Of a stretch of DNA of 64,000 nucleotides, positions 3,739 through 62,536 are shown one piece after another. Under the pieces are notes generated by a model that saw only the letters and a program-made list of their open reading frames with translations, did no database searches and was not told the origin of the DNA. Positions within the stretch are counted from its first letter, which is position 1. Every line of letters starts with the position of its first letter. The position numbers and the translations under genes are program-made. The stretch spans positions 120,001 through 184,000 of the forward strand of contig CAVQGX010000033.1 of NCBI GenBank assembly GCA_963712115.1, read 5' to 3'. Source of the DNA: an uncultured delta proteobacterium (GTDB lineage: Bacteria > Desulfobacterota > Syntrophobacteria > BM002).

Positions 3739-3843
3739 GTAAACAGTAAACGGTGAACGGTAAACCGATTATGCGCAGGCTCCTTAACCTTTCACCGTTT
3801 ACCATTTACCGTTTACTCTTTTTTTCGCTATGCGCTTGGCGCT
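3739..3843. repeat. Heptamer inverted array (GTAAACR / YGTTTAC) followed by a TTTTTTCGCTATGCGC module
   Basis: gtaaacagtaaacggtgaacggtaaac ... ttcaccgtttaccatttaccgtttac. Confidence 0.75.
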
Positions 3844-3856
3844 GATTGTGTTCATT

Positions 3857-3892
3857 GTGGTCGCAGCAGGTGATTCATGAATATCCGGGTTA
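3857..3892. mobile_element. Right-end fragment of MITE family A
   Basis: gtggtcgcagcaggtgattcatgaa is identical to 24136-24160 and is followed by a tccggg end. Confidence 0.75.
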
Positions 3893-3905
3893 AGTTAATG
3901 GGCGT

Positions 3906-3943
3906 AAAAAAAACGGCAAGCCCCCAGGGAGATTGCCGTTTTT
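3906..3943 (-). terminator. Rho-independent terminator of the alpha operon
   Basis: AAAAACGGCAA...TTGCCGTTTTT hairpin with a U8 tract on the minus strand, about 25 nt after the rplQ stop. Confidence 0.8.
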
Positions 3944-3966
3944 ATATTTATAAAGTAGTAAGATTA

Positions 3967-4647
3967 CTATTCGTCGGCTTTTTTCGGTTTCTCTTTCTTG
4001 GCAGGTTCGGTAGATTCTTCTGCAGCCGCCCCCGGTTCAGCATCACTGATTTCAGGTTCCCCTTCTGCCTTTTCCTTGACCGCTGCCTTTTTAGCCTTCG
4101 GTTTCGTTGTCTGTTTACCTTTAGCTTTTTTCTTCTTTTCGGGAACTTCCTCGGCTGCGGCCTCTTCCGGTTCAGCCTCTGCAACCTCGGCCACCTCAGG
4201 TTCAGTTTCTGGAGTTGGTTCAACCGCTGGTGCCTTCACTTTGGCGGCTTTCGGGGCTTTGGTCTTTTTCTTTTTCTTCTTTTTCTCGGTTTCACCTGTC
4301 AGCAGTTCGATGAGACTCAAAGGTGCTCCATCACCGACGCGAAAGCCTACTTTCACCGTTCGAGTATAGCCACCGCTGCGTGCTTGATAACGCTGAGCCA
4401 GGTCGGTGAATAGCTTGTGAACTACGCTCTTATCACGGATCACTTGCAGGGCCTGGCGTCTTGCATGTAGATCTCCCCTCTTGCCCAGCGTGATCATCCA
4501 ATCAGCCCAGCGCCTAAGCTCCTTAGCTTTTGCCTCGGTGGTATATATCCGTTCGTGCTCCAGCAATGAAGTCACCATGTTGCGAAACATGGCCAACCGA
4601 TGGCTGGAAGTGCGGCCTAGTTTCCTCCCACTCTTCCCGTGTCGCAT
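3967..4647 (-). CDS. rplQ: 50S ribosomal protein L17 with a long low-complexity C-terminal tail
   Basis: [24 protein letters not shown]...GGYTR...GDGAP; about 105 extra K/A/E/P-rich residues. Confidence 0.97.
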
Positions 4648-5655
4648 CTACTCCTGTTCCTTTCTCGCCTCTATTTCATCTCTTGAGGGGAAGTTCTCAA
4701 GTTTCATGCCCAGCGCCAAGCCCATTTCGGTGAGAATTTCTTTGATCTCGTTGAGTGACTTGCGGCCAAAATTCTTGGTTTTTAGCATTTCTGCTTCGGT
4801 TTTCTGGACTAGTTCGCCAATGAGTCGGATGTTGGCGTTCTTCAGACAATTAGCAGAACGTACTGACAATTCAAGCTCGTCCACCGAACGGAAAAGGTTG
4901 TCGTTCAGTTTGGGTTCCTCTTCCTCTTCCTCCTTGGGTTCAACTTCTGGTTCCTCGTCGAAGTTGATAAAGATGGTCATTTGCTCTTTCAAAATTTTTG
5001 CCGCATAGGCCAGGGCGTCCTCTGGCATGACGCTGCCGTCGGTCCAAATTTCCATGGTAAGCTTGTCGTAATCAGTTATCTGGCCCACACGAGCCTGGCT
5101 TATCACATAGTTTACCCTGCGGATGGGAGAAAAGATCGCATCCATTGGGATGACTCCTATGGCAGCATCTTCTTCCAAATTTCGTTCTGCCGGCATGTAG
5201 CCCTTACCGTTCTTGACTTGCATCTCCATGTGCAATCTACCGTCTTTGGACAGAGAGGCTATATGTTGCTCCGGATTGAGAATTTCCACCTCCGGCGGGC
5301 AGTTGAAATCCCCAGCTGTGACCTCGCCCTGCCCTGCTTTGTCCACCTCTATTGTCCTGGGCTCTTCACCATGCAACTTGAGCCTGACCTCTTTTAAGTT
5401 CAAAATGATGTCGGTTACATCTTCACGAACCCCGGGAATAGTGGAGAATTCGTGTAGCACTGCGTCTAATTTCACCGAGGTTATGGCGGCACCCTGCAGT
5501 GATGACAGCATGATGCGTCTTAGGGCGTTGCCAATGGTAATGCCAAAGCCTCTCTCCAATGGTTCACAGGCGAATTTCCCAAAAAACCTTGAGGCGGTTT
5601 TGGAATCTAGTTCTAACTTTTTTGGACTAATTAATTCTCGCCAATTTCTGTACAT
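4648..5655 (-). CDS. rpoA: RNA polymerase alpha subunit
   Basis: [53 protein letters not shown] at 5655 with AAGGAG RBS. Confidence 0.98.
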
Positions 5656-5742
5656 ATTAACTCCTTTTAGAAGAACCCGATTTGGCCAGCGGTACGACAT
5701 GTACCGAAAAACAAATAGATAAAATTTGGCCACAATGGGAGT

Positions 5743-60255: not shown

Positions 60256-60285
60256 GAAAGTAGATCTTAGTCAAGAGGAAGAGAA

Positions 60286-61035
60286 ATGTCCGGACATTCC
60301 AAATGGAGCAGTATTCGTCACAAGAAAGGTGCCACGGACGCCAAACGGGGCAAAATTTTTTCTAAGCTTAATAAAGAGATCATGGTAGCCGCTCGCATGG
60401 GTGGTGGCGATCCGACGGGAAATCCTCGGTTGAGACAGGCCATAGCCGCAGCCAAGGCTGAAAATATGCCCAAGGACAACATCGAACGGGCCATTAAGAA
60501 GGGCACAGGCGAGCTTGAAGGAGTCAACTACGAAGAAACCATCTACGAGGGCTATGGTCCCGGTGGTGTGGCAGTACTGGTGGAAGTTATGACTGACAAC
60601 AAGAATAGGGCCGCTGCTGATGTCCGTTATATTTTCAGCAAACGGGGAGGCAGCCTAGGTGAGGCCGGCTGCGTGGCCTGGATGTTTGATAAGAGAGGTT
60701 TAATCGTTTTTGAACGAGACCAGGTAGATGAGGACGAGATCTTGGAGGTAGCCCTCGAAGCAGGCGCCGATGATGTGGTTACCACAGAAGACCAGTTTGA
60801 GGTCCACACTGATCCGGCTACATTCGAAGCATTGAAGCAAGCCTTCGACGACCGGGAAATAGGTTACACCTTGGCAGAAATAACCATGGTGCCTCAGAAT
60901 AATGTGAAGATTGACAACGAGCCCCAGGCTACCCAGCTGCTCAAGCTTATGGAAGCGATTGAGGACTCCGACGATGTGCAGAAGGTTTACGCCAATTTTG
61001 ATATACCCGACGAGATCCTGCAACGGATCGGCTAG
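60286..61035 (+). CDS. yebC: YebC/PmpR-family protein
   Basis: [36 protein letters not shown]; upstream of ruvC. Confidence 0.96.
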
Positions 61036-61090
61036 ATAGCAGCTGGCAGCAGACAGCGGGCAGAATAAAACTAGGCACTAGGAACTGACA

Positions 61091-61251
61091 GGTCATTTGG
61101 CCACTACATGTGGCCGTCACTACGCTACGCTGTCATTCATAGTTAACTGTCATTGTGGCGTTGAAACAACTTAATGACGGCCGTAAGGCCTAATGACGGC
61201 AAAGCCTAGTGACAGCGAGGCGCGATAGCGCTGAGCGTAATGACCTAATGA
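61091..61251. repeat. Inverted (TAATGAC)n array whose units are separated by different mini-hairpins
   Basis: taatgac-ggccgtaaggcc-taatgac-ggcaaagcc-tagtgac-agcg..agcg-taatgac-c-taatga, mirrored by gtcatt units at 61091-61155. Confidence 0.8.
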
Positions 61252-61314
61252 TGCCTGGAGCCCTGGGCCTAAAAGCATATCACCAATAACACCTGACCAA
61301 CTAGAGTAGCCATC

Positions 61315-61815
61315 ATGCGAATCATAGGCGTAGATCCCGGTTCAACCGTTACAGGATACGGAATTGTGGAGGAGGTTAATAAGCAATTGTGCCATGTGGC
61401 CAGTGGTCGGGTTGTCTCTTCTTCACGAATGGACTTTCACCTTCGACTAAAGAGAATATACACTGAGTTGGAGAAGGTCATTGCTTCGTACGAACCTGAG
61501 GTTATGGCCGTGGAGGATCTTTTCATTGCTCGTAACATCAAAAGTGCTTTAAAACTCGGTCACGCCCGAGGAGTGGCTATTTTGGCCGGGCTGAACGCTG
61601 AACTCCCCATTGCAGAGTATTCTCCTTTGGAAGTGAAAAAGGCCCTGGTAGGATACGGACGAGCCCACAAAGTGCAAGTCCAAGAGATGGTCCGTACCCT
61701 TCTTGGCCTTGGTGCGCCCCCCGACACGGACACAGCGGACGCTCTAGCCGTGGCCATATGCCACCTTCATTGCTGTCAGGGAGCCGGGAGGCTCATTCAG
61801 AGGAATCGCCAATGA
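61315..61815 (+). CDS. ruvC: Holliday junction resolvase
   Basis: IIGVDPG...TGYG, LGHARG, GYGRA.K.QV, DALAVAICH. Confidence 0.97.
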   Translation: MRIIGVDPGSTVTGYGIVEEVNKQLCHVASGRVVSSSRMDFHLRLKRIYTELEKVIASYEPEVMAVEDLFIARNIKSALKLGHARGVAILAGLNAELPIAEYSPLEVKKALVGYGRAHKVQVQEMVRTLLGLGAPPDTDTADALAVAICHLHCCQGAGRLIQRNRQ

Positions 61816-62414
61816 TTGCCCATATTCAAGGGCTTCTCCATTTCAAGTCACCAGAGTACCTCGTTATCGATGTTGATGGCATGGGCTACCAAGTTCACGT
61901 GCCACTCTCGACTTTCTACGATCTTCCCCAGCTAGGGAGTACGGTGTCTCTGCACATTCATACCCACGTGAGAGAAGATGCTCTGCAACTCTACGGTTTT
62001 CGGTCGCCAGAGGAAAAAGCAATTTTTGTCCGTCTTATTAGTATTTCCGGAATTGGACCCCGTCTCGCAGTAAATATCCTCTCCGGCATCAGTCCTGCTG
62101 AACTGGTTGAGTCTTTAAGCCAAAACAATCTCGCCAGGTTGATTTCTATACCGGGAGTAGGGCGCAAAACCGCTGAGCGAATCATGGTGGAGCTGAGGGA
62201 CAAGGTCAGCAGTCTGGTACCTGGTCATGATGTCACCATACCAGTTAAAGCAGCAGCCAACGAGGCAATGATTGAGGATGCCCTTTCCGCACTGCTTAAT
62301 CTGGGATACAAAAAGGGAGTGGCCCAACGGGCTATCGAAAATGCCAGGCAGCGACTGGAAGGAGAAATCACCCTCGAGAGTTTACTGAAGGAGTCACTCC
62401 GCGCATTGGCCTAA
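61812..62414 (+). CDS. ruvA: Holliday junction branch migration protein
   Basis: MIAHIQG, HVREDALQLYGF, SGIGPRLA, PGVGRKTAERI, ALLNLGY. Confidence 0.97.
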   Translation: MIAHIQGLLHFKSPEYLVIDVDGMGYQVHVPLSTFYDLPQLGSTVSLHIHTHVREDALQLYGFRSPEEKAIFVRLISISGIGPRLAVNILSGISPAELVESLSQNNLARLISIPGVGRKTAERIMVELRDKVSSLVPGHDVTIPVKAAANEAMIEDALSALLNLGYKKGVAQRAIENARQRLEGEITLESLLKESLRALA

Positions 62415-62419
62415 AATTT

Positions 62420-62536
62420 GGTAAGCGGTAAGCAGTAAGCGGTAAGCGGTAAATTTCGCAACTAAAAATCACATTACAAACCGCTCACTGCTTACTGCTC
62501 ACGGCTTACCAGCAAGTTTGCGCTATGCTCTATGCG
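62420..62536. repeat. Heptamer inverted array (GGTAAGC / GCTTACY)
   Basis: ggtaagcggtaagcagtaagcggtaagcggt ... accgctcactgcttactgctcacggcttacc, then gcgctatgctctatgcg. Confidence 0.85.

Follow-up and report, generated by a model that had tools for sequence, protein, structure and literature searches.

The 64,000-nt window analyzed here (positions 120,001 to 184,000 of contig CAVQGX010000033.1, from the genome of an uncultured delta proteobacterium) carries, between the genes of its core operons, tandem arrays of 7-, 8- and 9-nt units, many of which pair as the inverted arms of hairpins. With a probability of roughly 0.6, we read the window as a sample of a genome-wide population of hairpins resembling short tandemly repeated repetitive (STRR) sequences, whose unit families are selfish or near-neutral DNA lineages. 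Under this reading, a family would spread or seed new copies, and slippage and deletion would subsequently lengthen, shorten and degrade these in place. Hairpins without an open reading frame (ORF) would be relatives or remnants of cassettes carrying a gene for an intervening-sequence protein (IVP). The main effect on the cell would be a by-product, namely long duplexes in polycistronic mRNA, possibly cut by double-strand-specific RNases as in the intervening sequences (IVSs) of rRNA. We do not think that the hairpins are a selected regulatory signal. The evidence consists of the abundance of the arrays, their intergenic bias, their inverted pairing and non-crossing layout, the strand-symmetric mismatches of the stems, the fixed polarity of each family, the turnover of the elements and the IVP cassettes.

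Genome-wide counts refer to the source genome (G000; 4.9 Mb in 70 contigs, 48.9% GC, 94% complete), which was compared with genomes from its genus (17), its family (1) and its class (12). Tandem Repeats Finder (TRF) returned 4676 rows for the whole genome, of which 2115 have period 7, 455 period 14, 426 period 8 and 541 period 9. A Markov-1 simulation yielded 16, 5, 19 and 20 rows per Mb for the same periods; period-7 arrays are thus ∼27 times commoner than simulated. The period-7 rows fall into 274 canonical unit families, and 91% of the arrays lie outside ORFs of at least 150 aa; such ORFs make up 74% of the genome. A strict test applied to the window, which required three units to be 80% or more identical at a lag of 7, 8 or 9, flagged 166 positions. 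All 166 fall in the gaps, which add up to 11.3 kb; the genes, at 52.7 kb, have none.

Arrays were found by TRF in 17 of the 53 window gaps and by the strict test in 16, all among TRF's 17. About five further gaps (rplR/rplF, rpsK/rpsM, rplC/rpsJ, rplK/nusG and hpnG/hpnN) hold degenerate arms picked up by the inverted-repeat scan or by eye. The initial annotation of the window had put the number of array-bearing gaps above 25, which drops to 17 by set criteria and to about 22 when degenerate ones are counted; two of its arrays turned out to be copies of a separate 176-nt palindrome resembling a miniature inverted-repeat transposable element (MITE). All eleven unit families that it had named were located in the window. 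The seven junctions that it had singled out are all enlarged, each with arrays or arms: rpsE/rplR (160 nt), rplR/rplF (87), rplW/rplD (171), fusA/rpsG (242), rpoC/rpoB (347), rplJ/rplA (425) and ruvA/ruvB (141). The arrays occupy the span from the stop codon to the following ribosome-binding site, and the repeat hairpins leave the Shine-Dalgarno sequence free. Units that would place stop codons in all three frames of a period-7 array were considered and set aside, as they are not enriched in arrays (0.604 versus 0.564 expected) or on the sense strand (471/1229 versus 0.364 expected).

We counted arm pairs as neighbouring arrays at most 400 nt apart whose units differ by no more than one base. 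Neighbouring heptamer arrays of the same family are inverted in 215 cases and direct in 28, and octamers in 29 and 0, which bears out the layout of a left arm followed by a reverse-complement right arm that had been described from the window. Nine-mers counted by TRF units gave 0 inverted and 3 direct pairs; the alignment scan still detects CACAGAG-type 9-mer arms at 36315-36446. TRF pairs alone were too sparse for an assessment of nesting (one nested, one crossed), and an alignment-based genome-wide hairpin scan with an equal penalty for every mismatch was used instead. Gaps holding at least two inverted-repeat pairs showed 131 nested, 12 crossed and 350 serial arrangements, where nested and crossed would be equally frequent under random order. 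A bulge that interrupts a long stem makes it score as nested too, which corresponds to the long imperfect rods of the initial annotation. The nesting of different families proposed in the initial annotation is therefore seen genome-wide and at two of its three sites in the window, 17908-17992 and 39894-40035, but not at 46984-47091. There, in the hpnG/hpnN gap (plus strand), TTGGAGTA and GCGGATT words are visible by eye, no inverted repeat reaches a score of 20, and the gap folds with a z score of -1.1.

Predicted RNA folds of seven window hairpins have z scores of -3.8 to -7.25, and for all seven not one of 200 dinucleotide shuffles folds as well, so that the arms pair beyond what composition explains. 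Across the window, 17 of the 50 gaps of at least 40 nt reach z scores of -3.3 or lower (30 shuffles). Low scores without heptamer hairpins occur at rpoB/rplL, at hpnM2/groEL and at the two MITE-like copies, and the single direct arrays of secY/rplO, rpsC/rplV and hpnH/hpnM1 score near 0. Intrinsic terminators were tried as an identity for the hairpins and rejected: positions 3000-22900 contain 17 terminator-like sites (21 expected by chance), none of them on a hairpin. A perfect 17-bp palindrome at 56998-57031, between the convergent hpnM2 and groEL and flanked by A- and T-runs, looks like an ordinary bidirectional terminator rather than a repeat hairpin.

The stems have a regular anatomy. In the rplF>rplR stem, the pairing of AGCNNTC units runs through the five constant bases, while the two variable ones stay open as a 2x2 internal loop that recurs every 7 nt; the predicted folds are imperfect rods in which ∼5 paired bases per unit are followed by ∼2 mismatched ones. 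Read in transcript orientation, stems across the genome hold 7520 Watson-Crick pairs, 430 G-U pairs, 418 A-C oppositions and 1276 other mismatches, with 22% of stem positions mismatched. Selection at the RNA level should keep G-U and purge A-C; as the two are equally frequent, there is no RNA-type wobble preference, and the complementarity looks to be made or kept at the DNA level, symmetrically on both strands.

This mismatch spectrum bears on the idea that the hairpins are selected RNA elements, that is, intercistronic processing or stability signals that tune ribosomal-protein stoichiometry, for example as sites for RNase III, whose sites lie between the early genes of phage T7. Such a role would suit strongly structured hairpins that sit between co-directional genes and spare the Shine-Dalgarno sequence. 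It would also suit their distribution: among gaps of 40-500 nt, repeat-built hairpins occur in 283 of 1761 co-directional (16%), 55 of 379 convergent and 30 of 375 divergent gaps (8%), half as often in the last as in the first. The lack of a G-U excess and the share of mismatched positions argue against it, as does, less firmly, the gene for RNase III: no rnc turned up in G000, G002 or G003, while it is present in 15 of the 17 genus genomes and in all other relatives searched. Its absence from G000 probably reflects an assembly gap, because 8.7 kb around the rnc of G007 have no counterpart in G000. Together with the variability of the junctions described below, this makes selected RNA elements a very unlikely account. 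Loss of RNase III was likewise rejected as a cause of hairpin tolerance, since rnc-bearing genus genomes hold hairpins at the sampled junctions too.

A hairpin that begins with a unit and ends with its complement differs as a molecule from one built the other way round. Each unit family keeps one fixed arm polarity, with 173 pairs in one orientation versus 2 in the other over the 25 families that have at least two pairs (for example, ACTAGGC 17:0, AAACCTG 0:17, ACCTCTG 0:15, ACACCTG 0:12 and AGAGATC 12:0). The 5' arm has more G than C in 177 of 232 pairs and is purine-rich in 180; by family, the ratio is 49 versus 15, and the same G versus C comparison in hairpins without repeats gives 183 versus 217. 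When arrays are read by their purine-rich strand, the 5' half of the gap contains 1388 of them and the 3' half 804. A few cores dominate: CTGA, GATT, GCAT or CTAG occurs in 60% of period-7 arrays versus 18.5% expected, and the 4-mer cores CTGA, GATT, GCAT and GGCA are enriched 3-4 times when arrays are counted and 1.4-2.3 times when families are. Heptamers published from other phyla share the cores CTGA and GATT, which is suggestive only.

The family-wise polarity is not easily explained by independent local births, and this, with the dominance of few cores, tells against an account in which the arrays are microsatellites that arose in place. In that account, random seeds would expand by slippage, fold-back or template switching would make the second arm, nothing would move, and IVP genes would merely sit in tolerant gaps. 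A DNA-level origin of this kind agrees with the strand-symmetric mismatch spectrum. It also agrees with unit numbers that vary between orthologous arrays, with hairpin interiors that are mostly unique and with the lack of a transposase tied to the arms in this genome.

We further investigated the genes enclosed by such arms. The genome has 14 matches to PF05635 (IVP; 13 above cut-off) and 5 to PF13366 (GxxExxY). The four-helix-bundle identity TIGR02436 was confirmed for both IVP genes tested, and GxxExxY corresponds to TIGR04256 (NCBIfam). To score the flanks, 250 nt of upstream sequence were aligned locally to the reverse complement of 250 nt of downstream sequence, and the best alignment was held to a threshold of at least 28. 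This score was reached by 12 of the 14 IVP genes and 2 of the 5 GxxExxY genes, versus 123 of 4070 ORFs of at most 400 aa (3%). The association of similar arms with these two gene families, which the initial annotation had put forward for related genomes, thus holds in this genome, and IVP is an ORF family enriched between arms. In all 12 cases, one arm lies on either side of the gene rather than a hairpin alongside it, which also speaks against microsatellites with bystander genes. The arms are tandem 7-, 8- or 9-mers with an own family for each copy (CAGCCGT, GCGAGACGA, GAGGTCA, GCATAGG, GCATGGA, GGTCATTA, TAAAGTGCC and others), and several of these families also build ORF-less hairpins in the window. 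Three IVP copies have in-frame stops and three are fragments; about 12 of the 14 are co-oriented with a flanking gene. All 14 lie between or beside protein genes and none in an rRNA gene. The cassettes lie elsewhere in the genome, the window holding none.

Other arm-enclosed ORFs were uninformative: some encode transposases of the IS630 and IS1595 types, which have inverted ends of their own, some are spurious ORFs within the MITE-like repeat, and some are ordinary genes (rplR and lspA, for example) that happen to lie between two hairpins of the same family. On contig C30 (121529-124834), three IVP cassettes, each with different arms, are interleaved with two ordinary genes (201 and 412 aa) in a stretch of 3.3 kb. 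A conserved AAAGGGGCRCC motif directly precedes the IVP start codon in variants that are only 40-95% identical (loci L166-L175, L186-L191, L198 and L213).

At orthologous junctions of the genus, an IVP cassette is present in 2 of 16 loci for the site on contig C52 and in 2 of 12 for that on C18. The C30 site holds IVP in 8 of 10 loci, but as different variants with different arms; a junction that carries different IVP variants with their own arms in different species is unexpected for repeats that never move. IVP variants 61-66% identical to the C18 copy have a different arm family (GCGCATA versus GCATGGA). This last observation weakens another explanation, that the arrays are binding sites whose units, a 5-nt core plus two free positions, are read by a repeat-binding protein, possibly an IVP pentamer, with the hairpin being secondary. 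Units that combine a constant core with variable positions, such as AGCNNTC, would fit such sites, as would the over-representation of a few cores and the separate arm family of each IVP gene. Unit families nevertheless far outnumber IVP genes (257 versus 14), and we regard such putative binding sites as highly improbable, more so than selected RNA elements.

The cassettes raise the more far-reaching possibility that repeat hairpins and IVP cassettes form one class of IVS-like selfish elements in the junctions of mRNA operons. Each unit family would be a lineage whose fixed arm polarity is produced directionally. The IVP protein would be the nucleic-acid-binding partner, GxxExxY nucleases a second cargo, and ORF-less hairpins non-autonomous or decayed copies. 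We put this forward tentatively, as a proposal that is less likely to hold than to fail. If it were true, the STRR repeats and the IVP/S23p family, both orphan features at present, would each acquire a function. If the association of arms with IVP is causal, operon-junction hairpins would be linked to the IVSs of rRNA, and IVP/S23p would gain an assayable substrate in its own arms. In the literature covered, which takes in few subscription journals, no publication was found that connects IVP genes with heptamer arms.

The selfish-lineage reading also draws on how junctions differ between relatives. We compared 24 junctions of the S10, spc and alpha operons in the window with those of the closest relative, G002 (proteins 89-99% identical), and found a length difference of more than 2 nt in 11 of them. 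The rplD>rplW gap has 171 nt here, 91 nt in G002, where only the inner hairpin is present, and 21 nt in G018. Conversely, rplW>rplB has 14 nt here versus 135 in G002, 134 in G013 and 113 in G018, each with a different unit family; arm families at this junction differ between species with both arms switching together. At rplR>rpsE, the same arms occur in four species, and an 80-nt interior is present in two and missing in two. This interior (11171-11250) is conserved in G013 and partly in G018; in G002 and G011 it is deleted, with the same arms on either side. It could represent an older element or else a small regulatory RNA.

The rplF>rplR and rplR>rpsE junctions were followed across 30 loci overall. 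They measure 52-216 and 69-164 nt in 19 family loci, and 11-35 and 24-33 nt in 11 class-level relatives, while the adjacent rpsH>rplF gap keeps a length of 40-44 nt throughout the family. Both junctions thus look to have been occupied already in the family ancestor and to have evolved in place since, with other sites later gained, lost or replaced. Empty orthologous sites therefore exist, both in the class-level relatives and at the 21-nt rplD>rplW gap of G018. The long occupation of two spc junctions within the family is what selected RNA elements would predict; the short junctions (11-35 nt) retained by sister families, and a sequence, length and even presence that differ among species and strains, are not.

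Contigs from RNA libraries of strains that are 95-99% identical (four runs) show whole elements replaced by other letters. Position 19776 is joined to 19846 via 12 other letters (two runs), 17894 to 18092 via 159 letters across the rplW/rplD composite, and, at a MITE-like copy, 23971 to 24186 via 20 letters and 23997 to 24175 via 11. These joins are alleles rather than splices, because other letters intervene. Such contigs are blind to transcript ends, strand and level, and contig ends at hairpins are no evidence of processing. They span one array-bearing junction in related strains, and the position of the hairpins suggests that they are co-transcribed with their operons. Repeat elements thus turn over quickly between species and strains, in junction length, arm family and strain alleles alike. 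Contigs of close strains in metagenomes and metatranscriptomes diverge or end at the hairpins, which matters for the assembly and binning of such lineages.

Replacement of whole elements between close strains is a further point against microsatellites that arose in place, while the persistence of the same arms at the same junction across the genus is one in their favor. Because the arms outpair shuffles, empty sites exist and IVP is enriched between arms, the arrays are not plain slippage microsatellites, and we consider an origin wholly in place unlikely.

Several observations weigh against the view of the families as spreading selfish lineages. The arms of heptamer hairpins share only the unit, and 85 of 154 hairpin interiors of at least 30 nt occur only once, so that the majority of hairpins did not arise by copying of a master element. 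No enzyme able to move the elements was found in G000. ORF-less hairpins (∼368) are far more numerous than IVP cassettes (14), and no IVP remnant was detected inside the window. The same arm family is kept genus-wide at rplF>rplR and rplR>rpsE, for which vertical descent suffices. Finally, the scarcity of hairpins in divergent relative to co-directional gaps could reflect function and not tolerance alone. The interpretation of the hairpins as a mobile or intervening-sequence system, proposed in the initial annotation, consequently stands in part: pairing beyond shuffles, empty sites and IVP (and perhaps GxxExxY) cargo agree with it, whereas the missing mobilizing enzyme, the lack of a wobble excess and the apparently inherited junction hairpins do not.

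The clearest sign that heptamer-armed modules can be copied as units, if only as passengers, comes from the separate repeat class found in rpsG/rpsL and ileS/shc. This is a 176-nt perfect palindrome with a minimum free energy of -109 kcal/mol and ends TAGCCCGGATGTTTCATGAAT. Genome-wide, it has 121 paired copies of less than 400 nt, 42 of them of exactly 176 nt. Longer copies contain extra hairpin modules at recurrent positions, some with heptamer arms and a shared interior. The 176-nt element has the multiple copies with conserved ends and interior that define a MITE, and the heptamer hairpins do not; no autonomous partner of the palindrome was seen. Its copies in the window lie at 23978-24171 (rpsG/rpsL; terminal inverted repeat 19/20 bp, gap z -6.5, no heptamer array) and 43572-43768 (ileS/shc; inverted repeat 40/45 bp).

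Transposases of the Y1 type, including the REP-associated tyrosine transposases (RAYTs), were rejected as mobilizers, as the four genes in G000 have unrelated ends and none has heptamer arms. A RAYT-like Y1 gene on contig C20 (238180-238446) has inverted GC-rich palindromes resembling repetitive extragenic palindromic (REP) sequences on both sides. A reverse-transcriptase or telomerase-like origin of the polarity was also set aside, with no RVT_1 match in the 94% complete genome.

Among known repeats, the window repeats are a richer variant of the STRR-type heptamer repeats. STRR heptanucleotide repeats of heterocystous cyanobacteria were reportedly described by Mazel in 1990, long simple-sequence repeats of bacteria are said to have been surveyed by Mrazek in 2007, and Elhai reportedly described, in 2008, small dispersed repeats of Nostoc with nested insertions into one another. 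The original STRR definition names a filamentous or heterocystous cyanobacterium as host. STRRs and long simple-sequence repeats share with the present arrays tandem 7-nt units, many families per genome, an intergenic and hypervariable nature and the lack of a known function. The genome under study has tandem 7-nt families with a non-coding bias and no cyanobacterial host. Its host is a dsrA-bearing non-cyanobacterium, most of its arrays form inverted pairs with fixed polarity and nesting, they sit in ribosomal-protein operons, and they include 8- and 9-mers. STRR or heptanucleotide repeats are the closest known class, and the ORF-bearing IVS of rRNA is the closest architecture. The present analysis places heptamer hairpins of a lineage outside the cyanobacteria in its ruv operon and in those for ribosomal proteins and RNA polymerase, and it adds three regularities, the strand-symmetric mismatch spectrum, the fixed polarity per family and the tight association of arms with IVP. 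The dense genus-level junction comparison and the tests of wobble symmetry and polarity are likewise its additions.

The GGGAATC/GGGGAYT repeats of Xanthomonas and Nostoc include inverted repeats noted as possible stem-loops and vary in length among close relatives; their authors favor G-quadruplexes and report no function for their heptamers (Rehm, 2015; PMC4692102). The placement of GGGAATC, with the G-rich strand next to the 5' neighbour, is matched by the bias of arrays and arms described above (1388 versus 804; 177/232). By contrast, G-tracts are missing from most units here, and the dominant ones (ACTAGGC, CAGAGGT, AAATCCG and GCATAGR) have no GGG tracts and so lack the at least four G-tracts of such quadruplexes. 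The family-by-family polarity goes beyond what that account describes, and 15 of 67 families here have the opposite G/C bias. Heptamers in Beggiatoaceae (TAACTGA; MacGregor, 2015; PMC4679880) and Geobacter (PMC2700814) are intergenic, lie by start codons and also precede ribosomal-protein genes. They are almost all direct (169 direct sets, 1 inverted), whereas inverted pairs dominate here; the CTGA core is common to them and to the most enriched core in this genome. Heptamer repeats also serve as strain-typing markers (PMC5088731).

The Coxiella 23S rRNA IVS carries an S23p ORF and is regarded as a selfish element (Warrier, 2016; PMC4990558). Like it, the cassettes here (12/14) place a decaying ORF of the PF05635 family inside the loop of a long stem that inverted flanking sequence forms. 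Unlike it, they lie between protein genes rather than inside an rRNA gene and have stems made of tandem arrays; any excision by RNase III would be a prediction. REP sequences and the REPINs built from them resemble the hairpins in being short palindromic intergenic repeats with hundreds of copies (Bertels and Rainey, 2011; PMC3116915). The heptamer arms differ in having no RAYT and in being periodic arrays rather than a fixed 20-30-nt sequence.

Along the window, the individual elements are as follows, with a strand given where one was assigned. In the S10/spc/alpha region, the lysC/rplQ hairpin (3739-3816) consists of GTAAACG and then ACCGTTT arrays (TRF; inverted repeat 27/35 bp) and folds with z -7.17, better than all 200 shuffles. 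The rpsK/rpsM gap holds a short hairpin with degenerate TGGAATG/CATTCCA arms (6860-6890; 12/15 bp, gap z -3.4), where the G018 gap has 18 nt. A lone, unpaired direct array of the octamer TGGAGTAT lies in secY/rplO (9888-9922; TRF 4.4 copies, gap z +0.4), the G018 gap being 1 nt. On the minus strand, the rpsE/rplR hairpin (11139-11282) has GCTATCA-type arms around the 80-nt interior (28/32 bp, z -5.85), and the AGCNNTC hairpin of rplR/rplF (11679-11739; 22/30 bp, z -3.79) has a near-identical copy in G002 and one with additional interior in G011. The lone 9-mer array TAAAATGCC in rpsC/rplV (15933-15962; TRF 3.3 copies) has different copy numbers in G002, G013 and G018, and two IVP genes on contig C42 have arms of this unit type.

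The rplW/rplD composite (17908-18071, minus strand) comprises GCATAGG arms around an AATTTCG/GCGGATT hairpin at 17908-17992 (TRF; inverted repeat 33/40 bp, z -6.02), followed by CTGACTC (18010-18032) and CGCTATG (18042-18071) arrays found by TRF, which run up to the end of rplD. An AATTCCC-type octamer array (TRF) occupies 19805-19846 in rpsJ/tufA. The fusA/rpsG gap folds into a long imperfect hairpin of AAATCCG/CGAAATT-type units (23235-23379, minus strand; 43/59 bp, loop 27, gap z -4.8). In rpoC/rpoB, an AAATCCG array (TRF) is accompanied by a distant complementary 11-mer (29137-29258; 11/11 bp, loop 100), and the gap z is only -2.2. The rplJ/rplA gap (34930-35104, minus strand) contains an ATTGCGG hairpin at 34930-35019 (TRF; 22/29 bp), ATTACTCC octamers and 8.3 copies of CTGCTTA right after the rplA stop, with a gap z of -1.2.

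The CACAGAGnn 9-mer-type arms of the rplK/nusG hairpin (36315-36446, minus strand; 17/20 bp, gap z -3.6) enclose a 92-nt interior; this arm type also brackets the GxxExxY gene at 9416-9766 of contig C46. The spacer between tRNA and tufB (37596-37702) holds GGAATATT and TAATTCCA octamer arrays (TRF; strict lag-8 signal). The nested rod between tRNA and lspA (39894-40035, minus strand) has outer TTGGAGTA and inner AGATTGC arms around a 41-nt interior (42/49 bp, z -5.36), and lspA/ileS (40573-40748, minus strand) has a nested pair of outer GCGCATAGCGCA (12/12 bp) and inner AGGAGTC/CTGACTC arms (TRF; inverted repeats; gap z -3.9). Next to the second MITE-like copy, ileS/shc also holds a CAGGTGT hairpin (43978-44047; TRF; 21/24 bp, z -7.25).

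In the hopanoid region, TRF finds an AGTGCCT array in hpnN/hpnA (50027-50057; 4.4 copies). The hpnA/ispH composite (51161-51622, plus strand) combines CAGGTGT, GCATAGA, AAAGTCGTT, GGCATAG and CTGTCTC arrays (TRF) with nested long-range pairs (three nested inverted repeats; gap z -3.3), and hpnH/hpnM1 has a lone TGGAGTAA octamer array (53751-53784; TRF; gap z -0.3). Last, the GGTAAGC hairpin of ruvA/ruvB (62419-62511, plus strand) encloses a 29-nt loop (TRF; 28/32 bp, z -5.55).

NCBIfam scans of the window identified, on the minus strand, tuf, secE, nusG, rplKAJL, rpoB (1372 aa), an unsplit rpoC (1359 aa), rpsLG, fusA, tuf and the S10/spc/alpha operons, with adk after secY. Scans of the long ORFs in the remainder identified a hopanoid cluster, groESL, ruvCAB and neighbouring genes. 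The host is non-cyanobacterial because rpoC is unsplit; dsrA (a match above the curated cut-off) and adk after secY point the same way. Ribosomal protein L6 of the host shares no more than 59% identity with any sequence from outside the host's own family. No rRNA genes lie in the window. Four tRNA genes adjoin the second tuf copy; the two copies lie at 19844-21037 and 38021-39214, and in assemblies of relatives the contigs are interrupted at tuf, the pattern expected when a duplicate has collapsed. The rplQ ORF (3967-4647, 226 aa) has a long C-terminal extension past its L17 domain, and the ORF matches a 'sunset domain variant' model only below cut-off.

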